From positions 588,336 to 652,335 of the forward strand of contig CAWEAA010000008.1 of NCBI GenBank assembly GCA_963806905.1: a DNA stretch of 64,000 nt, given 5' to 3'. Below the pieces are notes generated by a model that worked only from the letters and a program-made list of their open reading frames with translations, did no database searches and had not been told where the DNA came from. This DNA comes from an uncultured Verrucomicrobiae bacterium. GTDB lineage: Bacteria > Verrucomicrobiota > Verrucomicrobiia > Limisphaerales > UBA11358. Of the stretch, positions 5,618 through 32,072 are shown one piece after another. Positions within the stretch are counted from its first letter, which is position 1, and every line of letters starts with the position of its first letter. The translations under genes and the position numbers were made by a program.

Positions 5618-6439
5618 ATGAACGCCGCGCTTGAATCGTTGGGTCTCATCGCCGGCAACCGCTCGCTGCCGCTGGAGTTCGCGCGGCAGGCACGCACCGC
5701 CGGCGTCAAACGGCTCATCGCCGTCGCGTTCGAAAATGAAACCGATCCCGCGCTCACCCCGCTCGTGGACGAAATCGTCTGGCTCAAGGTCGGCCAGCTT
5801 TCCAAAATGATTTCGGCGTTCACCGACCGTGGCATCAGACGATGCGTCATGGTTGGCCAGATTGCGCCGAAAAACCTTTTCGACCTCCGGCCGGATTTGC
5901 GGGCGATGGGACTATGGCTCCGGCTCCCGGAAAAAAACGCCCACACGATTTTCGGCGCGATTGCCGAAGAGTTGAAAAAAGACGGTGTGGAATTGATTGA
6001 CGCCACGCCGTGGCTCAAGCCGCTCATGCCCGCTGCGGGATTTCATCTTGGCCCCCCATTGTCCGACGGGCAACGCGCGGACGTGGAGTTTGGTTTTCGC
6101 ATTGCGAAGGAAGTTTCGCGTCTGGAAATCGGCCAGACCGTCGTCGTGAAAAACGGCACCGTGCTGGCAGTGGAAGGATTTGAGGGGACGGACAAGTGCC
6201 TTGCGCGCGGCGGCGAACTCGCCGGCAAGGATGGCGGGGTGGTCGCCGTCAAAGTGGCCAAATTGGACCACGACATGCGGTTCGACATTCCCTGCATAGG
6301 CGCCAGCACGATAGAGGCTTGCGCTGCCGCCAAAATTTCGGTGCTCGCCCTGGAGGCCGGCCGGACTCTGTTGCTCGAACGGAAAGCTTGCGAAGCACTG
6401 GCTCAAAAAAATAAACTGGCACTCGTTGTCGTTGAATGA
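5618..6439 (+). CDS. lpxI: UDP-2,3-diacylglucosamine pyrophosphatase LpxI (DUF1009 family)
   Basis: LGLIAGNRSLPLEFARQARTAGVK... and GQTVVVKNGTVLAVEGFEGTD...FDIPCIG are typical of LpxI/DUF1009. ATG at 5618 was chosen because the longer ORF-track start at 5483 reads through repeat sequence. Confidence 0.8.
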   Translation: MNAALESLGLIAGNRSLPLEFARQARTAGVKRLIAVAFENETDPALTPLVDEIVWLKVGQLSKMISAFTDRGIRRCVMVGQIAPKNLFDLRPDLRAMGLWLRLPEKNAHTIFGAIAEELKKDGVELIDATPWLKPLMPAAGFHLGPPLSDGQRADVEFGFRIAKEVSRLEIGQTVVVKNGTVLAVEGFEGTDKCLARGGELAGKDGGVVAVKVAKLDHDMRFDIPCIGASTIEACAAAKISVLALEAGRTLLLERKACEALAQKNKLALVVVE

Positions 6440-10908: not shown

Positions 10909-12780
10909 ATGGAAAATCTGGCCTGCGGACGAGACCAAAATCTTCGACGAGCCTTTTCAAACTGGATCGGACTGGCGGTTGTCGCGGTGGCGTTCGCTTT
11001 CGCCGCCGTAATGACCTGGCGCAAATGGCCGGACCTCATCGGGGATTTCGGAGTGCAGATGTACATCCCGTGGCGGCTTTCCGAAGGCGCCGTGCTGTAT
11101 CGGGACATCTTCTATTTTACCGGCGGGCCGCTGTCGCAGTATTACCACGCCCTGCTCTTCAAAGTTTTCGGCGTTTCCTTCCTCACGATCATCATCGCCA
11201 ACCTGGCCGCGGTGGCCGCCTTGCTGTGGCTGACCTATCGCCGGTTTCTGGCGGCGGCGGACGCCTGGACGGCAACTGCCATCGGCCTCGGCATCGTGCT
11301 GGTTTTCGCATTCGCCCAATACGTCACCATCGCAAACTACAATTACATCACGCCTTATTCCCACGAGGCGTTGCATGGATTGATCCTCTCGATTCTGGCG
11401 GTGGCGCTGTTGTCGGACTGGATGACAATGGAACGGCGGCAGTTCGCGATTGGAGCCGGCTTTTGCGCCGGCCTGGTATTTCTCACCAAGCCGGACATTT
11501 TTCTGGCGCTGGCAATTTGTGTCGTTGCCGCGTTTACGCTGCATGGCATCGTCCAGCAACGCACGGGGTTTGCCGCGAAATCGGCGGCAGGATTTGTACT
11601 GGCGGCAGGGTTGCCGGCGTTGGGATTTTTCCTCTTTTTTCTGGGCCGGGAAAACTGGCGGGAAAGCCTGCGCTCGGTGCTGGCCGGCTGGACACCGTTG
11701 TTCCAGACCGGTGTGGTGAAAGATCCGTATTACCAATGGTGCCTGGGCTTCGATCAGCCCGCGACGCACCTGCGCGACCTCGCCGTTCAATCCGTTTTTG
11801 CCGTCGCCGCGCTTGTCCTTCTTGCGCTTGTTTTCCGCGCCGTAAGAAATCAAAAGCCCGGCGTGCAATGGACGATCTTACTCGTGCTGGTTGTCCCGGC
11901 CGTGCTGGCGATCGCGCGGTTTGACGTGAGCGGTTGCGGAGCCGCTTTGCCGTTGCTGGCGGCTTCTGCGTGCGTTCTGCTGCGCCGGCAATATCAGAAA
12001 TCCCCCGATGAAAACGCGATAGTGTTCCCGCTGTTATGGAATGTCTTCGGCCTGGTGCTGCTGCTGAAAATGGGCTTGTTTCCGCGCCTCTTTCAGTATG
12101 GATTTGTGCTGGCAATGCCGGCGTTCGTCGGCGCGGTTTATCTGCTGCTCTGGTTGCTGCCGCGGTTGCTGGAAGGGAAATTTCAAGTTCCCCAACGGTA
12201 TCTCCGCGTGGCGGTCGGACTGATGCTATTGGCCGGCTTTGTCCGCCTGTTTCAACAGTCGGAACAGTTTTATGCCGCAAAAAACCTGGCGGTGGGCCGC
12301 GGCGGAGACCGGATCATCGCCGCCGGCCCGTCGGGCAACGCCACGGAAGCCCGCACCATGGAAACGGCGCTGGAATGGATCGCAAAAAACGTTCCACCGG
12401 ACGCAACGCTCGCTGCCCTGCCGCAGGGCGCCATGATCAATTATTTCAGCCGCCACATCAATCCGACGCCGTGCGTGGATTGGAACCCGAACATGCTGCA
12501 GGTGTTCGGCGAGTTGAACATGACGGCAGCCTTTGAGAAAACGCCGCCGGATTACGTGGCGCTCGTGGAATGGAAACCCTTTGAATTCGGCGTGGACTAC
12601 TTTGGCCGCGACCCGGGCTACGGCATGGAGATCATGCAATGGATCAAGGCGCGCTATCAGCCCGTGCAATTGATCGGCCAGGAACCGCTCCAAAACGGGT
12701 TGTTCGGTATCAAAATCCTGAAACGCGATCCGACCAACTCTGTGACGACATCCGTGCAAGCGCGGCAAGGCAAAAAATAA
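10909..12780 (+). CDS. Polytopic membrane protein, putative GT-C (ArnT/PMT-like) glycosyltransferase
   Basis: 623 aa, about 12 predicted TM helices followed by a soluble C-terminal domain. The architecture resembles GT39/GT83-type enzymes, but no catalytic motif was verified. Confidence 0.4.
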   Translation: MENLACGRDQNLRRAFSNWIGLAVVAVAFAFAAVMTWRKWPDLIGDFGVQMYIPWRLSEGAVLYRDIFYFTGGPLSQYYHALLFKVFGVSFLTIIIANLAAVAALLWLTYRRFLAAADAWTATAIGLGIVLVFAFAQYVTIANYNYITPYSHEALHGLILSILAVALLSDWMTMERRQFAIGAGFCAGLVFLTKPDIFLALAICVVAAFTLHGIVQQRTGFAAKSAAGFVLAAGLPALGFFLFFLGRENWRESLRSVLAGWTPLFQTGVVKDPYYQWCLGFDQPATHLRDLAVQSVFAVAALVLLALVFRAVRNQKPGVQWTILLVLVVPAVLAIARFDVSGCGAALPLLAASACVLLRRQYQKSPDENAIVFPLLWNVFGLVLLLKMGLFPRLFQYGFVLAMPAFVGAVYLLLWLLPRLLEGKFQVPQRYLRVAVGLMLLAGFVRLFQQSEQFYAAKNLAVGRGGDRIIAAGPSGNATEARTMETALEWIAKNVPPDATLAALPQGAMINYFSRHINPTPCVDWNPNMLQVFGELNMTAAFEKTPPDYVALVEWKPFEFGVDYFGRDPGYGMEIMQWIKARYQPVQLIGQEPLQNGLFGIKILKRDPTNSVTTSVQARQGKK

Positions 12781-12915
12781 TAGCGGTGTCCGACTGCCGC
12801 CTCCAGGCCGCTTTTTGCGCTCGCGAGCCGCCATCTATTTTTCCAAACTCGCGCCCACCTTGCGCTAATCTGCAAGCAAAATCTCGTTGAATTCATCGGC
12901 CCGTTCGCCGCCGCA

Positions 12916-13848
12916 TCATTGGCGCCGGTCATCGAACCGGGGCGCAGCCCATTTTGAAATGTCAGACCGGGATCTGCCGAATCGAGCTGCAACCAACTTC
13001 AGGAACTCGTTGGCGGCACGACCGGGCGGACGTTGTTTCGGCCAGACGGCGACGATTTTTCGCTGCGGCTTCGGTGACCGTAGCGAGCGATACTCCGGCA
13101 AATCCTTGCACCCGTCCCGCGCCGCCATCGCCGGAATCAGCGAAATGCTAAACCCCGAAGAGACGAGCGCCTGAATCGTCTCGAGTTGGGTGCTGCGAAA
13201 GCTGATTTTGGGCTTCACGTCACGGCGGTCGCAGAAGCCCAGCACCTGGTCGCCGAGACAATGGCCCTCTTTCATCACGATCAACCGTTCGCCTTTCAGG
13301 TCGGCGACCGCCACGGTGCGTTTGCGCGTGAGTGGATGGCCCGGCGGGAGTGCCACCAACAGCTCGTCGAAAAACAACTCCTTCACCTCCAAACGCTCGT
13401 CCCGAATCGGTTGACTGGCCAGGGCGAAGTCAATTTCATAACCGTCCGCGAGCTTGAGCAGTTGCGCGGTGGTGTCTTCCTGCACTACGGTCTCCACGCC
13501 GGGAAATTTTTCCATGAATTCCACCAGCACCACCGGCAGCAGATAGGGCGCGAGGGTTGGCAGCGCGCCGATGGTCTAGGTGCCGCGCAGCAAAGCCCGC
13601 GCGTCGGCCGCCTCGCGTTTGGCCGCGTCCACCTCTTCCAGAATACGTACCGCCCGCCGCAGAAACACCTCGCCGTGCGAGGTCAATTTCACCTCGCGTT
13701 TCATGCGGTCGAACAGCTGCTCGCCCAATTCGTCCTCGAGTTTTAGAATCTGCTGGCTCAACGAAGGCTGGGAGACAGGGCATTGCTCGGCGGCGCGGGA
13801 GAAGTTTCTGGATCGCGCCACGGCGACCGCGTAACGAAGTTGATGCAT
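12916..13848 (-). pseudogene. oxyR: OxyR-type LysR regulator interrupted by a single in-frame TAG (13576-13578)
   Basis: The HTH ORF (MHQLRYAVAVARSRNFSRAAEQC...LLRGT*) and the effector-domain ORF are in the same frame. Read-through gives GT*TIGALPTLAPYLLP. The segment MKEGHCLGDQVLGFC matches the E. coli OxyR Cys199/Cys208 segment (EDGHCLRDQAMGFC). The gene is divergent from katG. Confidence 0.85.
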
Positions 13849-13852
13849 TTCT

Positions 13853-13889
13853 ATAGGCAATGCCTATGATGGCAAAAGGAAAAAAGTAT
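13853..13889. promoter_or_regulatory. OxyR/LysR-type operator in the oxyR-katG divergent intergenic region
   Basis: Perfect ATAGgcaatgcCTAT (ATAG-N7-CTAT) at 13853-13867. A degenerate second dyad, AAAGgaaaaaaGTAT, follows 7 nt later (13875-13889). The site is 5 nt from the oxyR ATG and 59-95 nt upstream of the katG ATG. Confidence 0.6.
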
Positions 13890-13920
13890 TTCAACAATAG
13901 CCCTCGAAATGCTTCAATGA

Positions 13921-16146
<2,226 letters not shown>

Positions 16147-23616: not shown

Positions 23617-25044
23617 ATGAACAACGAAATCCAGAACCAAAAATGCCCATTAAGGGAAAGAGCTATTTATGGGTTTGGTGATTTGGCATCCTGCCTGTTC
23701 TGGCAGACCATCACGTTGTATCTGCTGTTCTTTTACACGGACGTATTCGGTCTGGCCGCCGCCGCCGCCGGAATAATGATTGGTGTCTCCCGGTTGCTGG
23801 ATGCCTTTTTTGACGTGGTCATCGGCATGACAGCGGATCGCACCAGAACCCGTTGGGGCAAATTCAGGCCCTACATTTTGTGGGGGGCTATTCCGCTGGC
23901 TATTTCAGCGATTTTGGCATTTTCGACGCCTGCTTTTGGCGGACCGGCGAAAATAGTTTACGCCTATGTCACTTTCATCTTTTTCATGTTCATGTATTCA
24001 ACGGTCAACATTCCCTACACGGCCATGCTGGGCGTCATTAGTGGGGATCCGGTCGAAAGAACGAGCGCCTCGTCCTGCAAATTTATCGGCGCTTATGTGG
24101 GCGGTTTTATTGTTTCGCTCACGGCGTTGCCGCTGGCCCGGTATTTCGGGCACGACGGCGCCGAGCCCCAGAAGGGCTGGCATATGACGCTGCTGATTTA
24201 CGGCGTGGCGGCAGTTATCCTTTTTTTGATCACTTTCTTTTCAACCCACGAACGGATTCAACCCATCGCCAAGGAAAAAACCTCCATCGCAAGGGACTTG
24301 GCGGATTTGACAAAGAACGTGCCCTGGATGTTGTTGTTTGCCGCGACGATTCTTTTCATCCTCTTCGTTTGCATTCGCATGAGTGTGACCACCCACTATT
24401 TCAAGTATTACATCGGAGAACAGGAAGTAACCCTCTTTGGCACAACCCACAAATACGGTTTTGAAGTGCTGGCATCTGCTTTCAACACCATCGGACAGGC
24501 GCTGGCCATATTGGGTGTGATTCTGGTTCCGTGGTTTGCAAAAGTCTGCGGGAGAAAGAATGCCTTGATCATTCTTTTTGTCACCGCGCTCATTTGCACC
24601 GGCTCATTCTATTTCTTTAAGCCGGAAAACCTGGTGCTGATTTTCATCTTTCAGACTATCGGCTCACTGGCGGGCGGCCCCATTTCCGCGCTGTTATGGG
24701 TTCTGTACGCCGATACCGCCGACTATTCGGAATGGAAAACCGGCCGCCGGGCCACCGGACTCGTGTTTTCAGCTTCCATCATGTCGAACAAGATCGGCTG
24801 GACCGTTGGCAGTGTGATCGCAGGCATAATTCTTTCGCGGACCGGATTCGTGGCCAATGTCGTTCAAAACGTGGACGTCCAGAACGGTTTAAAGGCGATG
24901 ATGAGTATAATCCCGGTCGCGATAGGAGTGGTCGGATTAATCGTTCTCTTGTTCTACAAATTGGATGAACCGACCATGAAGAAAATCAAGGCGGACCTGG
25001 ACGAAAGACGCAAGGCCAGCGGCCAGACTGCCGCCGCAGCGTGA
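23617..25044 (+). CDS. GPH-family (MelB/YicJ-like) glycoside:cation symporter, MFS superfamily
   Basis: 475 aa, 12 TM helices. N-terminal YGFGDLASCLFWQTITLYLLFFYTDVFGL and DRTRTRWGKFRPY are hallmarks of the glycoside-pentoside-hexuronide family. Confidence 0.85.
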   Translation: MNNEIQNQKCPLRERAIYGFGDLASCLFWQTITLYLLFFYTDVFGLAAAAAGIMIGVSRLLDAFFDVVIGMTADRTRTRWGKFRPYILWGAIPLAISAILAFSTPAFGGPAKIVYAYVTFIFFMFMYSTVNIPYTAMLGVISGDPVERTSASSCKFIGAYVGGFIVSLTALPLARYFGHDGAEPQKGWHMTLLIYGVAAVILFLITFFSTHERIQPIAKEKTSIARDLADLTKNVPWMLLFAATILFILFVCIRMSVTTHYFKYYIGEQEVTLFGTTHKYGFEVLASAFNTIGQALAILGVILVPWFAKVCGRKNALIILFVTALICTGSFYFFKPENLVLIFIFQTIGSLAGGPISALLWVLYADTADYSEWKTGRRATGLVFSASIMSNKIGWTVGSVIAGIILSRTGFVANVVQNVDVQNGLKAMMSIIPVAIGVVGLIVLLFYKLDEPTMKKIKADLDERRKASGQTAAAA

Positions 25045-25126
25045 TGTTTTGTTTTTCCCGCGTTCCCGGCGCGCGCCGCGGTAAAATTGTATCGTTTTCC
25101 GTTTAACCACGAAAAAGGATAAAGAG

Positions 25127-26116
25127 ATGAAAAACACAATTATCGGCGAATCACTACCCAACCTACCGTGGGAAGATAAACCCAAGGATTGCATTGACGT
25201 GCTGTGGAGGTACAGCGGCAATCCCATATTGAGCTGGAATCCGATCCCCAAGGCGGCGCGTATTTACAATAGCGCGGTCCTGCCGCATAAAAATGAATTT
25301 GTCGGGGTCTTCAGGGCCGACCAGAAAAACGGGCGGGCGACGTTGTTTTTCGGCAAAAGCAAGGACGGCCTCCAATGGAAGATCGGACCCGACCCGATCC
25401 AGTGGGTGGACGAAAAGGGAAAACCCAATCCGCTCAGCTACGGTTATGATCCAAGATTCGTAAAGCTCGACGGTACCTGCTATATCGTCTGGTGCGACGA
25501 TATGCATGGGGCCTCAATCGGATTGGGCAGGACCAATGATTTCAAGACTTTCATTCGCATGCCGAACCCGCTGATGCCCTTCAACCGGAACGGAGTTCTT
25601 TTCCCGAGAAAGGTCAACGGCAAGTATTTGTTATTGAGTCGCCCCAGCGACAGCGCGCATACGCCTTTCGGTGATATCTACATGAGCGAAAGTCCTGACC
25701 TGATTTATTGGGGCAATCACAGACACGTTATGAGCAGGGGCGGAAGCGGCTGGTGGCAGGGCACAAAAATAGGTGCAGGCCCAATCCCGATTGAGACAAC
25801 GGAAGGCTGGTTGTTGTTCTACCACGGCGTGTCAGGAACCTGCAACGGCTTCGTTTACAGCTTTGGCGCGGCGATACTCGATATCAACAAACCGTGGAAA
25901 GTGTTATACCGGACCCGTGACTATCTGCTCACGCCGGAGAAGCCGTACGAGACAACCGGCTTTGTCCCAAACGTGACATTCCCCTGTGCTAACCTATACG
26001 ACGCCCAGACGGGCAGAATCGCCATTTATTACGGCGCCGCCGACACCTGCACGGCCGTTGCGTTCACGCAGGTGGATAAATTAATCAATTACATCAAGAA
26101 GAACTCGGAAGTTTAA
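25127..26116 (+). CDS. GH130 beta-mannoside phosphorylase-family protein
   Basis: 329 aa. NPILSWNPIP..., IYNSAVLPHKNEFVGVFRAD, GWLLFYHGV and AIYYGAADT match GH130 five-bladed propeller phosphorylases. Confidence 0.8.
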   Translation: MKNTIIGESLPNLPWEDKPKDCIDVLWRYSGNPILSWNPIPKAARIYNSAVLPHKNEFVGVFRADQKNGRATLFFGKSKDGLQWKIGPDPIQWVDEKGKPNPLSYGYDPRFVKLDGTCYIVWCDDMHGASIGLGRTNDFKTFIRMPNPLMPFNRNGVLFPRKVNGKYLLLSRPSDSAHTPFGDIYMSESPDLIYWGNHRHVMSRGGSGWWQGTKIGAGPIPIETTEGWLLFYHGVSGTCNGFVYSFGAAILDINKPWKVLYRTRDYLLTPEKPYETTGFVPNVTFPCANLYDAQTGRIAIYYGAADTCTAVAFTQVDKLINYIKKNSEV

Positions 26117-26129
26117 TCGCGCCAAAATT

Positions 26130-28496
26130 ATGCGATTCGGCTATTTTGACGACAAAGCAAAGGAATATGTAATCGAAAGACCCGATACACCGCGGTCTTG
26201 GGCCAACTATCTCGGCTCGACGGAATACGGCGCCATCATCACCAATAACGCGGGCGGCTACAGCTTCTATTTGTCGGCCGCACAGGGACGCCTGACGCGG
26301 CTGCGTTTCGACGACGTTCCGACCGACCAGCCGGGCAGGTATATTTACCTCCGCGACAAACAGTCAGGCGACTACTGGTCGAACGCCTGGCAGCCCGTGG
26401 GCAAACCGCTGGACCAGTATAAAACCACCTGCCGGCACGGCACGGCTTACACGATTATCAATTCCCAGTATTCAAAGATTGAAACGGAAACCACCTATTT
26501 CGTTCCGCTGGGCAAACATTTCGAATGCTGGCTGTTGAAGGTTACGAATAAAGACAGCGTCAAAAGAACGCTAAGCTTGTTCACCTACGTCGAATACCCG
26601 AACCTCTGGAAGTGCTTCCACGATTTTCTCAACCTGCAATATTCTCACGGTATAGTGAAAATGGATTTCGTTGACGGCATCATTGATTACGGAAGCTCCG
26701 TCCTCATCAGCGACCAGGATAACCGGTCTTTTCTGGCGTTCCTTGGCGGCGACGTGGTCGGCTTCGATACCGACCGTGACGTCTTCATCAGTCCGTATCG
26801 CGGTTATACGAACCCCATGGTCGTCGAAAAAGGCAAATGCACCGGCTCAAAGGCCTTTGGCGACGACGGCTGCGGCTCAATCCAGATCGATGTTGAACTC
26901 GAACCGGGCCAGACAAAAGAGCTGGTTGTTCTGATGGGCGTCGGCAAGGCGGCAGTCGAAGGCAAAAAAACCGTCAAACAGTTCGGCGATATCGCCAGGG
27001 TGAAAGCCGAGTTCGAAAAACTTTGTCAATACTGGCACAACCGCATCGAGGGATTGACCGTCTGCACGCCGGATCCGCAGTTTAACAGCATGATGAACAT
27101 GTGGAGTCCGTTCAACTGCCTGATGACCTATTCCTGGTCACGAATGGCCAGTCTGATCTACAGCGGCGAACGAGACGGGCTGGGTTATCGCGATACTGTC
27201 CAGGATTTCATGGGCGTTATGCAAATCATTCCGGATGAGGCCAAAAAGCGTCTTGAGCTGATGATTACCGGCCAGGGTTCCACCGGCGGTGCGATGCCAA
27301 TCGTAATGGCCTTTACACACAAACCCGGCAAAGAGAAGTTGCCGAAGGAGGACGAATACCGCTCCGACGATTGCCTATGGCTGTTCAACGCGATTACTAC
27401 ATACGTCAAGGAAACGGGCGATACCGGCTTTTATAACAAAGTCCTGCCATACGCCGACAAAGGCAGGGCGACCGTGCTCGGCCACTTGCGTCGGGCGATT
27501 GAATTCAATCTCAAACGCACGGGCCAACACGGTTTGCCCAGCGGCCTTTTCGCCGACTGGAACGATTGCCTTCGGCTGGGCACAAAGGGCACTTCGGTAT
27601 TTGTCGCCCTGCAGGTGCGTTACGGCCTGACGACCTATATCGAGATTTGCGGGATGTTTGGCAAGACCGCCGACATCAAATGGGCGAAAAAGCAGCTCGA
27701 AATAATCGACGCGAAGCTCGACAAGTTGGGCTGGGACGGCGAATGGTACGTCCGGGCCTACAAGGAAACCGGCGAGAAAATTGGCTCGCACGAAAACAAG
27801 CAGGGTTCAATTTATCTCAATACGCAGTCCTGGGGCGTTATCAGCGGCCACGCCGACGAAAAACGCGCCACGCAGGCGATGACCTCTGTAAACAAAAAGC
27901 TCGCCACCGATTATGGGCTTATGCTCTGCGCGCCGCCTTATGAAAATATCCCCTGCGCAGAAGTCCGCTCGGTTGTGTTCAACGGAGGCGTCAAGGAAAA
28001 CTGCGGCATTTTCAACCACACACAGGGCTGGGCGGTCATGGCGGAAACGATGCTCGGCCACGGCAACCGGGCGTTTAAATATTTCCGCAGCTCCATGCCT
28101 GCCTCGTTCAACCATAAAGCCGAGATACGCGGCAGTGAGCCGTACGTTTACTCGCAATACACTCACAGCATTTTCAGCCCGCGTTACGGTGCCTCGCGCG
28201 TCCCTTGGCTGACCGGTGCCGCATCCTGGGCATATTATGCAGCGACACAATATGTCCTCGGCATCCGGCCCGATTACAAAGGCCTTCTCATTGATCCTTG
28301 CATCCCGGCCAAGTGGAAGGAATTCACCGCCATTCGCCGATTCCGCAACAAAACGCTGAATATCAAAGTCGTGAATCCCAAGGGCGTCCAAAAAGGCGTC
28401 AAGAAAATCACCCTGAACGGTCAAGCAATCGAGGGCAACCTGATTCCCGTTTCCAAAATGGCAAAAGAAAACGAAGTCCTCCTTATAATGGGCTAG
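26130..28496 (+). CDS. GH94 glycoside phosphorylase (cellobiose/cellobionate phosphorylase-like)
   Basis: 788 aa. The N-terminus MRFGYFDDKAKEYVIERPDTPRSWANYLG is nearly the canonical cellobiose-phosphorylase start. The (alpha/alpha)6 catalytic region includes SGERDGLGYRDTVQD and WNDCL. Confidence 0.85.
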   Translation: MRFGYFDDKAKEYVIERPDTPRSWANYLGSTEYGAIITNNAGGYSFYLSAAQGRLTRLRFDDVPTDQPGRYIYLRDKQSGDYWSNAWQPVGKPLDQYKTTCRHGTAYTIINSQYSKIETETTYFVPLGKHFECWLLKVTNKDSVKRTLSLFTYVEYPNLWKCFHDFLNLQYSHGIVKMDFVDGIIDYGSSVLISDQDNRSFLAFLGGDVVGFDTDRDVFISPYRGYTNPMVVEKGKCTGSKAFGDDGCGSIQIDVELEPGQTKELVVLMGVGKAAVEGKKTVKQFGDIARVKAEFEKLCQYWHNRIEGLTVCTPDPQFNSMMNMWSPFNCLMTYSWSRMASLIYSGERDGLGYRDTVQDFMGVMQIIPDEAKKRLELMITGQGSTGGAMPIVMAFTHKPGKEKLPKEDEYRSDDCLWLFNAITTYVKETGDTGFYNKVLPYADKGRATVLGHLRRAIEFNLKRTGQHGLPSGLFADWNDCLRLGTKGTSVFVALQVRYGLTTYIEICGMFGKTADIKWAKKQLEIIDAKLDKLGWDGEWYVRAYKETGEKIGSHENKQGSIYLNTQSWGVISGHADEKRATQAMTSVNKKLATDYGLMLCAPPYENIPCAEVRSVVFNGGVKENCGIFNHTQGWAVMAETMLGHGNRAFKYFRSSMPASFNHKAEIRGSEPYVYSQYTHSIFSPRYGASRVPWLTGAASWAYYAATQYVLGIRPDYKGLLIDPCIPAKWKEFTAIRRFRNKTLNIKVVNPKGVQKGVKKITLNGQAIEGNLIPVSKMAKENEVLLIMG

Positions 28497-28519
28497 TACG
28501 GAAACTGCCCGGCCTCAAC

Positions 28520-29126
28520 ATGAACGCGTTCAAGTTTTTGATTCCATTTTTCGCGGTGTTGGCGATGGCAGCGAACTGTGTCGCCGCCGGAGATGCCACC
28601 ACAAACTGTTTAGTTGTGTGGGATGGTGAACAGGCGGCCATAGGCGCCGGCTGGACCCATGCCCCAAAGCAAGGCGAGGTCAGCCTTCGGCGGCAAACCA
28701 CCGTCGCGCACAGCGGCAATACCGCACTGGAGATGCGTTGCAAAGGCACCGAATGGCTCGGAGCCGGGTGGAACTGGGTGGCCTTCACCAAAGGCGAAGG
28801 TACCGATGTCCGGCGGATGAAACGGCTGACACTCTGGGTGAAGTGCTCCGGCAAAGGCGGCGACCTGCAAATTAACCTGCTCTGTGGCGGCCAGGAGTTT
28901 GATACCCCCCGAACATCATACTCAAAAGGTGCACCTGCTCAAATACTGTCCCACGCTGCTGGATGGCCAATGGCACAAAGTCGCCATCCCGCTGGCTGAT
29001 TTGCGCACGGTCGCAGGGTACGATCCGACCAAAGTGTGCGAATTGCAGATGGGCTTGCTTGCGGAGCAACCGGTGGATTGCAGCTTCTTCATAGACGCCA
29101 TCGGGTTCGATGACGCTGCAGGATGA
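28520..29126 (+). pseudogene. Secreted CBM-like/CIA30-like protein split by a +1 frameshift at a C6 run (28905-28910)
   Basis: Signal peptide MNAFKFLIPFFAVLAMAANCVAA. The frame-A ORF continues sensibly only if one C is removed, giving ...GGQEFDTP|EHHTQKVHLLKYCPTLLDGQWHKVAIPLADL...FIDAIGFDD. The two ORF-track pieces (28298..28999 and 28884..29126) overlap. Confidence 0.6.
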
Positions 29127-29319
29127 TGCCGTGAAGGACGGCTGATCCAGAAATTATTTTGCCCGCCAATCACGCGAAACACGCCAAAGCGGCTTTAAAT
29201 TGGAGTTTGCATCCGAAACGGACTTTTTCTATTGCCCGCTGTCAGCCAAATTGAATGAAAAAAGTGTTGGAGTGGATTTTCGGCGCGGCCGTTGTGATGT
29301 TCGCCTTGTTACCATTCAC

Positions 29320-29460
29320 AAATCTGACGGGCACGAATCGGCCTTCGAGCGGATGAGAATGTGCAAGAAGTTGTGCGGCGGCGTACACCGTGACGGCGTC
29401 AAGGCCTTTGCAGACGTGATTGACTTGGACGAGAAGCAGATTCAGTTGCTTATTCGATGA
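29320..29460 (+). pseudogene. Fragmentary second copy of the DUF5069 gene 3' end
   Basis: 29359-29445 aligns with 21196-21282 at about 83% nucleotide identity (…CACCGTGACGnCGTCAAG…GACGTGATTGACTTGGACGA…). Peptide RMRMCKKLCGGVHRDGVKAFADVIDLDEKQI versus RLKMRKEQCGGSHRDDVKTFVDVIDLDEKRI. The upstream two-thirds of the gene is missing. Confidence 0.65.
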
Positions 29461-32072
29461 CCGGTTTTCGCTGGGTTTGTTGGTTCCGGCGACAGGGGAA
29501 TTTCCCGGGCAGGAACGTTCCAACCTTGCTCGAACACTTTTGGTGATTCGCCGGCCAGACTGGCTTCGGCAAATTCCAAAGTGACTTCGCGGGTTTCCCC
29601 GGGCAGGAGCGAGAAATAGTTGTCGCTGTAAAACACCGGCAGAACCCCGGCGCCGGAGCGGTTTCGCAAGACCTTCAGCCGGATCATCAGCGCCACGGTC
29701 GGGGTTGGGTTGGAAATCCGGATCCGGATTCGGCAGTTTTGGCCGTTGTCAAACCGGCTGGCGGTGGCCGGGAGTGTCACTTTAGGCAACTGGTTGAGGA
29801 CCGAACACGACTCGCCTTTTCCACTGCTCCAATAGAAATTGTCCGAAACAATTTCCGCGCCCCGTTTCAGAACCAGTTTCACAAAAAACACCTGCGTCGG
29901 GTCGGTTGGCCGTTCGAGGGAAAAACACTCTTTGACGCGCGTGCTGGCCAGGCCAATCCGTCTGGACTTGTGCCAGCGTTCCTCGCCATCGAGGCCGTAA
30001 ATCCAGGCTTCAGCGGTGAGGTCGTCGCAGTTGGTTATGGTGTCATTTACCGCTTCGATTGTGTCGGCGTTTGAATTCCAAAAGATATGCACGGGTTCGC
30101 AGGCTTTCTTGGCACCGAAATAGGCGGCCGTCGGTTCAAAATAATAATCGTAAAGCTGGCAGATCAGCGAGGGCCACGCCGGCTGCGTCATCCACACCAG
30201 AACGCCGCCGCCCTGGTTGGCTTGCAGACATTCGTACATGGCTTTGGCCGATTCCATGTTCACCATCTGCGCCTTGCGGCAGTAATCTTCAATGTCCGCG
30301 GGCTGGCCATACCGGTGTTCGATGCGTTCGGAGTAGAGCGGCATCCGGGGCGACTGATAGTCGTGGACCGCCCACATGTCGTTGATGGGCCAGAGATTTT
30401 CCGCGGGCATCATCGCGCGCATGCTTTCCACCACCGGCACGGCCACGATTCCCAGTTCCGAGTGGAACGTTTTTCCGCGATTTGCGAAATACCATTCGAC
30501 ATCCTTGAGTTCATACGGACCGTGGCCGGTGACGGTTCCGGCAGCCGAATTCGGGATATAAAGTCGCGAACCATCCAGCGCGGCCACGGCTTCCCGCATC
30601 CCGGCGTCAAGGTCCGCAGGCGGGTTGCCTTCATTGCGGCCGCAGTAGAGCGCCAGCGAGGCATGACTGCGCACCCGGCGAATCTTGTCGCGCACATTGG
30701 CCATGAACATCGCATGGTCGTCGGGGTCGGGGCCGTCCACCGGATTGGCCAGCCAGAAATCGTCCCAGACCAGAATGCCGTAACGGTCGCACGCGTCGTA
30801 GAATGCCTGGCGCCCGACCATGCCCACCCAGTTGCGGATCATGTTCAGATTGGCGTCGTGATGCAGCCGCACGCGAAGGTCATAACCGGCGCGGTCGCAG
30901 TTCAACATGCCTTCGTCCATACCCCAGTTGCCGCCACGGCAAAGGATGCGTTTGCCGTTCACAAACAACGTGAGAACGTTGTTGATTACTTTGTAATCAA
31001 TCTTGCGAATCCCGAAGGCAACCACTTGTTTGTCGCTGACCGCGCCGCGGCATTCGAAACGCAGATTGAGCGTGTAGAGCGGTTGGGCCCCGTAGCCATT
31101 CGGCCACCAAAGACGCGGATTGGGAAAAGTCAGCGCGGGACAATTGGATTTATCTAGCGTCACGTCCCGGGTCTCTCCGGGGTCAAGTGACACGGGCTGT
31201 TCAAAGGTCACATTGCCAATGGTGCCAACCAGCTTTCCGGACTGGGGTTGGGTCGAATGATTGCAAAGTTCGGTTCTCACGATGAGATCGGCGCGCGAAA
31301 TGTCCGGGAGCGGAATTTCCGGGGTCACCCACGGATCAACGATGGTGACATCGCCGGAAGTCTCCAGCCGGACGTTGTTCCAGATGCCAATGTTGCGCCC
31401 GCGTACAATCGGCAGCCAGTTCCAGCCGGCGCTGGCAACGAAAGTCGGACTGTCGGCGCCGAGGATATCGCCATTGACGGTGGGCGAGCCAAGTTTCTTG
31501 TGGGTTACCTTTTTCTCTCCGGGTCCGGGATGCGCCACCCGGTGAATCAACATCGCCAGGCAGTTCGAAACGCCGGGCCGGGCAATCTGGGTGACATCAA
31601 AGCGTCCGCGAATGAATGCGCCGTCAATGCATCCGACCACATGGCCGTTCAGAAAAACCTCCGCTTTCCAGTTGATACCATCAAAGTTCAGCCAGACGCG
31701 CTTGCCGGAATAATCGGCCGGGACCATGAACGTGTCGCGATACCAAAAATCGTTCCGCGAAAAAAACTTCTCCGATATCTGGCTCATTTGATCGCCGAAC
31801 CAGGGATCGGGCACGGCGCCGGCCGCCACATAACTGCCGAGGACCGTGCCGGGTACAACCGCCGGAAGCCATTCGCTGTCATCGAAGCCGGATTGAGCAA
31901 TGCGTTCCGGCGAGGTTTTGACGAACATCGCGTTCTGCAGTTTCCAATTGCCTCCCGAAAGCGCCAAAGAACCGTCGGATTGCAGGGAAGATTCAGCCGG
32001 CGGAGGACGGGTCTCAATTTCCGCCTTCGCCATGGGAAGTAACACGGCCAATCCTATGAGTGCGGGTGCCAC
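29442..32072 (-). CDS. Secreted GH2-family glycosidase (beta-mannosidase / exo-beta-glucosaminidase-like)
   Basis: 876 aa. GH2 sugar-binding/Ig/TIM order with WLNFDGINWKAEVFLNGHVVG, NMIRNWVGM...YDACDRYGILVWDDFW and CGRNEG (acid/base region). GTG start. Confidence 0.75.
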   Translation of the reverse strand: MAPALIGLAVLLPMAKAEIETRPPPAESSLQSDGSLALSGGNWKLQNAMFVKTSPERIAQSGFDDSEWLPAVVPGTVLGSYVAAGAVPDPWFGDQMSQISEKFFSRNDFWYRDTFMVPADYSGKRVWLNFDGINWKAEVFLNGHVVGCIDGAFIRGRFDVTQIARPGVSNCLAMLIHRVAHPGPGEKKVTHKKLGSPTVNGDILGADSPTFVASAGWNWLPIVRGRNIGIWNNVRLETSGDVTIVDPWVTPEIPLPDISRADLIVRTELCNHSTQPQSGKLVGTIGNVTFEQPVSLDPGETRDVTLDKSNCPALTFPNPRLWWPNGYGAQPLYTLNLRFECRGAVSDKQVVAFGIRKIDYKVINNVLTLFVNGKRILCRGGNWGMDEGMLNCDRAGYDLRVRLHHDANLNMIRNWVGMVGRQAFYDACDRYGILVWDDFWLANPVDGPDPDDHAMFMANVRDKIRRVRSHASLALYCGRNEGNPPADLDAGMREAVAALDGSRLYIPNSAAGTVTGHGPYELKDVEWYFANRGKTFHSELGIVAVPVVESMRAMMPAENLWPINDMWAVHDYQSPRMPLYSERIEHRYGQPADIEDYCRKAQMVNMESAKAMYECLQANQGGGVLVWMTQPAWPSLICQLYDYYFEPTAAYFGAKKACEPVHIFWNSNADTIEAVNDTITNCDDLTAEAWIYGLDGEERWHKSRRIGLASTRVKECFSLERPTDPTQVFFVKLVLKRGAEIVSDNFYWSSGKGESCSVLNQLPKVTLPATASRFDNGQNCRIRIRISNPTPTVALMIRLKVLRNRSGAGVLPVFYSDNYFSLLPGETREVTLEFAEASLAGESPKVFEQGWNVPAREIPLSPEPTNPAKTGHRISN

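Follow-up and report, generated by a model that had tools for sequence, protein, structure and literature searches.

A single amber codon interrupts an OxyR-type regulator gene next to katG in an uncultured Verrucomicrobiae bacterium

The interrupted regulator gene and its OxyR-type features

The stretch of DNA analysed here (64,000 nucleotides, hereafter the window) belongs to an uncultured Verrucomicrobiae bacterium (assembly GCA_963806905.1, contig CAWEAA010000008.1, positions 588,336 to 652,335). On its minus strand lies a LysR-type regulator gene with the features of OxyR, divergent from an intact katG gene and separated from it by a gap of 99 bp. Translation of the minus strand from position 13848 to position 12916 yields a frame that a stop interrupts only once, at codon 91. 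The original prediction, made from the letters of the sequence, had reported a single in-frame amber codon at 13576-13578 in an otherwise intact gene, and this description is confirmed by the translation. The parts of the gene and its neighbour are the following.

12916..13848, minus strand: interrupted OxyR-type LysR regulator gene, 310 codons, with TAG at codon 91 and a terminal TGA at 12916-12918
13579..13848, minus strand: surviving N-terminal frame, 90 codons, encoding a winged helix-turn-helix and a linker helix
13576..13578, minus strand: premature amber codon TAG (codon 91), reading CTA on the plus strand
12916..13575, minus strand: remnant of the sensor (regulatory) domain, expected to be untranslated (LysR_substrate match at residues 86-290)
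13231..13260, minus strand: redox segment C-L-G-D-Q-V-L-G-F-C, with Cys197 at 13258-13260 and Cys206 at 13231-13233
13948..16146, plus strand: katG, catalase-peroxidase HPI, intact, 732 residues (TIGR00198, 1252 bits, full length)

The stop is located where the linker helix passes into the first sensor-domain strand, and the 90-codon N-terminal frame is expected to be the sole portion that is translated. When the product is read through the stop, Pfam detects HTH_1 at residues 2-60 (76 bits) and LysR_substrate at residues 86-290 (169 bits), the latter spanning the stop. Whether the two halves come from a single ortholog was checked in this way: since the Pfam domains run contiguously across the stop, both halves belong to one LysR-type gene. 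The junction GT*TIGALPTLAPYLLP and the redox segment EGHCLGDQVLGFC, both quoted in the original prediction, were found exactly in the translation. Downstream of the TAG the frame remains open for 219 codons and retains both cysteines and all invariant motifs, and the earliest in-frame restarts, a GTG at 13533 (codon 106) and an ATG at codon 112, are both situated past strand β1. In public gene calls the gene appears in pieces, as a 90-residue protein (P0121) and, separately, as a sensor part of 205 residues (P0123) or 199 residues (P0124).

Sequence comparison with the PDB revealed that the best seven matches are all OxyR proteins (4X6G from Pseudomonas aeruginosa; 6G1B, 6G1D and 6G4R from Corynebacterium glutamicum; 1I6A and 1I69 from Escherichia coli), with E-values from 1.8e-41 to 1e-30, CysB being next in rank. 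Alignment to these structures places Cys197 and Cys206 at E. coli OxyR Cys199 and Cys208, the equivalence that had been proposed from the sequence. The segment EGHCLGDQVLGFC matches GHCLHDQIVDLC of C. glutamicum OxyR, and the P. aeruginosa protein, residue by residue; likewise, the GHCLGDQVLGFC segment aligns residue by residue with the redox pair of the OxyR structures and is invariant in 21 orthologs. Thr98 is aligned with Thr100 of P. aeruginosa OxyR, a residue with a catalytic role (PMC6294878), and the alignment with the E. coli sensor-domain crystal construct begins at residue 87.

In NCBIfam the top match is also OxyR (NF008361), at 201.4 bits where 329 is required; GltC and CynR score nearly as high. 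The OxyR equivalog threshold is thus missed, which is expected for so distant a phylum, and the claim is limited here to 'OxyR-type': the label derives from the motifs, the structure matches, the synteny and the operator described below, and not from the curated NCBIfam threshold. The original prediction had spoken of an OxyR ortholog, a designation to which the structure matches, the cysteines, the operator and the pairing with katG lend weight whereas the missed equivalog cut-off does not. With the OxyR proteins of E. coli, P. aeruginosa and C. glutamicum the gene shares the two-domain layout, the GHC...C pair with identical spacing, the four-element ATAG/CTAT operator and a divergent peroxide-scavenging gene; it differs from them in its modest sequence identity, in its host phylum, Verrucomicrobiota, and in being cut at codon 91. 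As far as sequence can tell, the gene is an OxyR-type regulator of katG, whose switching by H2O2 would be expected from its family.

The intergenic region and its surroundings contain three further features.

13853..13889, no strand assigned: putative OxyR-type operator ATAG-N7-CTAT-N7-AAAG-N7-GTAT, 37 nt, with 2 mismatches
13866..13894, minus strand: promoter-like site for the regulator gene, TTGAAA, 17 nt, TG-CATCAT
13852..13854, minus strand: position of the ancestral start codon, ATA in the window and ATG in 141 of 141 recovered orthologs

The adjacency to katG that had been noted earlier holds not only in the window, as a divergent katG also neighbours the regulator in 91 of 134 related loci, counting those with 500 bp or more of upstream sequence. 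The order-level relatives of the bacterium are Limisphaerales and similar metagenome-assembled genomes (MAGs) from soil or peat. katG is presumed to be the target of the regulator. A four-element ATAG/CTAT site for OxyR is familiar from the E. coli literature, and with two mismatches or fewer this 37-nt motif occurs once in the 64 kb, against 0.00 occurrences expected. A fifth ATAG is found beside it at 13897-13900, the ancestral start codon shares bases with the perfect palindrome (13853-13867), and the operator stretch is almost invariant over eight orthologous intergenic regions. A consensus scan for the promoter of the regulator gene gave one site where 0.4 were expected, with both hexamers in columns conserved among orthologs. 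The operator palindrome lies directly downstream of this promoter-like site, an arrangement that would mean autorepression. On the katG side, inspection of the sequence indicated that the operator abuts a weak -35-like hexamer, which suggests an activator-dependent katG promoter. A perfect ATAG-N7-CTAT is present twice in the window (0.09 expected); the sole other copy (ATAGTTTACGCCTAT, 23953-23967) falls within an MFS_2 sugar-transporter gene (23617-25044) and is probably a chance match.

Origin of the stop codon and its distribution in the species

To trace the stop codon, the gene was compared with its homologs. A search of 5.8 billion proteins returned 5,386 of them, the best being 86% identical, intact, 297-312 residues long and encoded by Verrucomicrobiota MAGs. 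At the column of codon 91, 142 orthologous loci have leucine (90), valine (43), methionine (6), isoleucine (2) or phenylalanine (1), and none (0/142) has a stop; the alignment confirms that the TAG falls on the Leu of the conserved G-x-L-x-IG motif, as had been claimed. All of the eight nearest orthologs carry TTG at this column. A single T-to-A transversion therefore accounts for the TAG, and the comparison agrees with the single TTG-to-TAG change put forward in the original prediction. In a sister gene on contig L163 (P0122, 295 residues), which is intact, the column is occupied by CTG.

The same species was recovered in three contigs from other assemblies, in addition to the window.

L161: NCBI GCA_052916185.1, 1,856 bp, 3 single-nucleotide polymorphisms (SNPs) relative to the window, all in katG; codon 91 is TAG
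L162: ENA ERZ25039509, 7,618 bp, 93 SNPs relative to the window; codon 91 is TAG
L164: ENA ERZ25039501, 8,988-bp contig (about 2.6 kb of the 4,618 bp fetched align to the window), about 94 SNPs, nearly all in katG; codon 91 is TAG

Codon 91 is thus TAG in four of four same-species contigs, drawn from four assemblies, and no other allele of the species was seen. Among the 5.8 billion proteins, in which no homolog exceeded 86% identity, an intact allele of the same species was not found, and the species was not present in the species-representative genomes (best 87%) or in the JGI metagenome contigs (best 85%).

The ortholog comparison also bears on the start of the gene. The frame from 13848 to 12916 stands as it had been delimited, but in the orthologs translation begins two codons earlier (MEM...), at a position where the window has ATA. 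This ATA was considered as a possible second lesion and rejected, as the intact sister gene of L163 likewise has ATA; because L163 shares it, the start change is older than the nonsense mutation and harmless, and the working start is the Met at 13848-13846. The third base of the ancestral start, 13852, is A in the window, in L161 and in L163, C in L162 and G in L164, so that the codon reads ATA, ATA, ATC and ATG in the four same-species contigs. Position 13852 is either a true tri-allelic site beside the palindrome or a trouble spot for basecalling, the flanking 950 bp or so being otherwise nearly identical among the same-species contigs. Comparison of L163:850-1150 with window positions 13700-13899 gives 97-100% identity over the operator and the first 150 nt or so of the gene, and 69-87% elsewhere, a likeness that suggests that the 5' end and the operator either were exchanged between lineages or are extremely conserved.

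Two further orthologs have internal stops, with positions and stop codons both different from those of the window. Together with a frameshifted gene they raised the idea of recurrent knockouts in the clade (L088, TAA at codon 24; L044, TGA near codon 83; L075, a +1 frameshift), all three lesions being in the N-terminal third. This idea was rejected on the katG control: across the same loci, katG carries 2 stops and is frameshifted in 4 loci over 58.7k residues, and the regulator carries 2 stops and 1 frameshift over 45.9k, which makes lesions equally frequent in the two genes. The katG frameshifts occur in MFD long-read MAGs (six in L075, three in L044, three plus a stop in L023, one in L008), where the broken stretch of katG lies upstream of position 6001 (3450 in L023); they look like assembly indel errors, which would inflate counts of pseudogenes. 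In L088 (L088:3001-3100, Ga0181536_10003700) the TAA at codon 24, in the MEM numbering, stands in the context GAG TAA TGC where relatives have CAA. No katG lesion was detected on that contig, and L088 alone is left as a possible second natural nonsense allele of this regulator, of independent origin.

We then asked how long the gene might have been without function. The ratio of nonsynonymous to synonymous rates (dN/dS) is about 0.24 for the window gene against orthologs, ranging over 0.22-0.29 in pairwise comparisons with its relatives, and 0.16-0.25 among the intact genes, and the terminal branch of the window gene has a dN/dS of about 0.35, compared with 0.12-0.30 for most relatives. An acceleration relative to the katG clock was considered and rejected, the ratio of oxyR dN to katG dN being 1.76 with the window and 2.05 without it. 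At columns conserved to at least 97%, the window gene departs from the consensus four times (median 1), which ranks it third among 134 sequences. After the stop, private replacement and silent changes number 13:6, compared with 81:101 in the pooled intact relatives (Fisher p=0.055), and six private changes affect residues that are identical in all nine relatives (A109V, R129Q, E161D, L165V, G234S and R247C). No second reliable lesion was found in the regulator gene. These patterns of substitution suggest a gene that was constrained for nearly all its history and is now, perhaps, drifting. The TAG allele is young and is not private to one genome.

Strain variation was examined in the same contigs. 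Compared with the window, katG of L162 is 2.1% different (32 silent and 14 replacement changes) and that of L164 about 5% different, mostly at silent sites; as most of these strain differences are silent, katG is still under purifying selection. The body of the regulator gene is nearly SNP-free across the four same-species contigs and entirely SNP-free in the comparison with L164. The longest SNP-free run relative to L162 (12534-13822, 1,288 bp) covers the gene (Bonferroni p about 1e-5), and a second such run at 11064-12099 reveals a patchwork over the entire region. Of the three katG SNPs of L161, two also occur in L162, and the locus is a recombination mosaic. In L164 (L164:2645-4618) homology to the window ends at 12890, 26 bp beyond the stop codon of the regulator gene, and the downstream genes differ, so that either the contig is chimeric or the strain has a structural variant here. 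Given that the TAG is found in the longest SNP-free block, that the adjacent katG is diverged and that no intact allele was seen, the null allele might have been advantageous and have spread recently through diverged strains by recombination, in a gene-specific sweep, a scenario that we regard as unlikely. The TAG haplotype is shared across strain backgrounds, which is compatible with a recent sweep without proving it.

Loss of function weighed against other explanations

To evaluate the quality of the window, its other genes were inspected. About 30 neighbouring genes give end-to-end Pfam matches (SecA, Gnd, KatG, AroC, TrpA, BipA, EF-G, GyrA and GyrB among them). An error rate of 1 in 939 nt would predict about 54 substitutions in the other genes of the window, about 1.9 of them nonsense, and no interrupted gene was found elsewhere in the window among those checked. 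TAG terminates nine other predicted genes of the window, including those for SecA, GH94, TrpA and BipA, and in six of these nine the Pfam match reaches the expected end of the protein. A search for suppressor tRNAs had been advised in the original prediction; run within the 64-kb window, it recovered no tRNA gene, nor a member of any Rfam family. Reassignment or suppression of TAG was consequently rejected for the window on the basis of the nine TAG-ended genes and of ARAGORN calls that have no Rfam support. Two such calls were obtained, a tRNA with a 4-base anticodon at 11903-11991 within the open reading frame 10909-12780, and a 95-nt tRNA-Arg(TCG) at 29785-29879 within the GH2-family gene at 29442-32072; both are inside protein-coding genes, Rfam does not support them and they are probably false positives. 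RNA folding around the stop (13480-13600, sense strand) gave -41.8 kcal/mol compared with a shuffle mean of -45.6 (z=+0.99), with no signal of a structure. Programmed recoding of the TAG thus appears to be without support, there being neither a conserved stop nor a stimulatory structure.

On this evidence we hold with good confidence that the gene is a genuine natural loss-of-function allele, a young pseudogene, and not the product of a sequencing error. Of the outcomes that had been envisaged, a recent knockout is therefore the one favoured, but as an allele common to the four assemblies of the species and not as a private one. Several points weigh against this conclusion. With their indels in katG, L162 and L164 resemble contigs assembled from error-prone long reads, and the source contig is possibly long-read too; the evidence comes from assembled contigs, so that a systematic basecalling error is formally possible. 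The signal of relaxed constraint is marginal (p=0.055), the gene has too few SNPs for polymorphism to show that the downstream part is neutral, and the search for a suppressor tRNA or a second copy of the regulator covered 64 kb of the genome. If the stop were an artefact of sequencing or assembly, the true codon would be TTG and the gene intact, and the state of the related assemblies gives some grounds for this: katG has one to six frameshifts in the long-read MAGs L008, L023, L044 and L075, indels are present in L162 and L164, and 13852, within the same gene, reads A, C or G depending on the contig. Against it, the identical substitution is shared by four contigs from four assemblies that differ elsewhere by 3 to about 94 SNPs; the errors of the poor contigs are mostly indels and not transversions; the remaining genes of the window that were checked are intact; and the protein collection holds no intact allele of the species. 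A T-to-A transversion that recurs in four assemblies, including the many-contig assembly of L161, would be unusual for a basecalling error. An artefact, which the original prediction had also listed, is consequently very unlikely indeed.

Two other explanations accept the stop as real and leave the gene some function. Near-cognate or suppressor-tRNA read-through could supply a little full-length sensor: OxyR-type regulators are needed only in small amounts, the 219 open codons after the stop keep both cysteines and the invariant motifs, and overall dN/dS is below 1. A strong suppressor would nevertheless be costly where nine other genes end in TAG, no tRNA gene was found in the window and no stable RNA structure around the stop, and since no ortholog has a stop at this column the site is not one of conserved recoding. 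The open downstream frame is equally well explained by a young allele, and private amino-acid changes are somewhat enriched after the stop (the 13:6 and 81:101 given above). Read-through, another of the outcomes first listed, is thus left without positive support and appears quite improbable. Alternatively, the 90-residue product might itself be functional, as a DNA-binding-only dimer that occupies the palindrome and, blind to peroxide, acts constitutively as a repressor or an autoregulator. LysR-type DNA-binding domains do dimerise and bind DNA in isolation when the linker helix is attached, and the stop falls at the domain boundary (HTH_1 at 2-60, sensor domain from about residue 86), in agreement with the E. 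coli sensor construct, whose alignment starts at residue 87. The operator palindrome is fully conserved and the N-terminal 90 codons have a single private amino-acid change. This low count is confounded, as L163 is 97-100% identical there and shared changes were not counted as private. OxyR normally requires a tetramer to occupy its four-element site, and indels in the N-terminal part (13658-13659 in L162, 13777 in L164) would, if real, destroy the 90-residue product in those strains. We consider a functional fragment improbable. A natural loss-of-function allele remains the reading adopted below.

Two other regions of the window can be mentioned briefly. The open reading frame at 10909-12780 encodes 623 residues, has a strong coding signal and lies tail-to-tail with the regulator gene, in the same place as in L162; no Pfam domain was found in it. 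Further along, a carbohydrate-use cluster (23617-32072) comprises the MFS_2 transporter, a GH130 mannoside phosphorylase, a GH94 phosphorylase and a GH2-family exo-glucosaminidase-like gene, and fits a polysaccharide-degrading soil Verrucomicrobium.

Predicted consequences for katG control and comparison with known oxyR losses

From what is known of the family, the ancestral protein would have bound, as a tetramer, the four-element ATAG/CTAT operator between its own gene and katG, sensed H2O2 through Cys197 and Cys206, switched katG transcription in response, and repressed its own promoter. One T-to-A change then converted Leu91 (TTG) into TAG at the first sensor strand, just after the linker helix. 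Translation would halt after 90 residues, leaving the DNA-binding domain and the linker helix without a sensor domain or redox cysteines, and a restart at codon 106 or 112 would lose strand β1 and be unlikely to fold. As no peroxide-sensing domain would be made, katG would be uncoupled from the sensing of H2O2. If the katG promoter depends on an activator, low and non-inducible katG expression would be predicted. If, on the other hand, the ancestral protein in its reduced form was a repressor of katG, like that of Corynebacterium, the catalase-peroxidase would be permanently raised by the knockout.

Both modes of control are documented, OxyR being an activator in E. coli and a repressor in C. 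glutamicum, where its loss raises catalase and H2O2 resistance (PMC6294878). The oxyR null mutants of C. glutamicum and Shewanella oneidensis illustrate that the loss of a regulator that represses catalase need not harm the cell, and offer a model for a knockout that might be advantageous. These mutants are laboratory deletions, whereas in the present locus the operator geometry suggests activation instead. Natural inactivation of oxyR is also on record, the Mycobacterium tuberculosis locus being routinely termed 'the oxyR pseudogene' (PMC4545183). What the present gene would have in common with the oxyR of the M. tuberculosis complex is a natural inactivation fixed in a lineage that keeps its peroxide-detoxifying genes. 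The mycobacterial pseudogene is old, has multiple lesions and adjoins ahpC and not katG. Here, by contrast, a single nonsense codon interrupts a frame that is otherwise open, and the host is environmental and uncultured. A naturally inactivated oxyR is thus already known, and the Verrucomicrobial case is a new, younger and single-lesion environmental example.

In practical terms, the public 90-residue and 205-residue 'proteins' should be annotated as one disrupted OxyR-type gene. In terms of biology, the locus points to the natural loss of a peroxide sensor throughout a species of free-living soil Verrucomicrobium in which the catalase-peroxidase stays under purifying selection, and one may ask what controls katG once its own regulator is gone. 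The loss is also relevant to the sensitivity to H2O2 known from soil bacteria that are hard to culture. Had the null allele truly swept, the locus would provide a clean environmental example of adaptive regulator loss.

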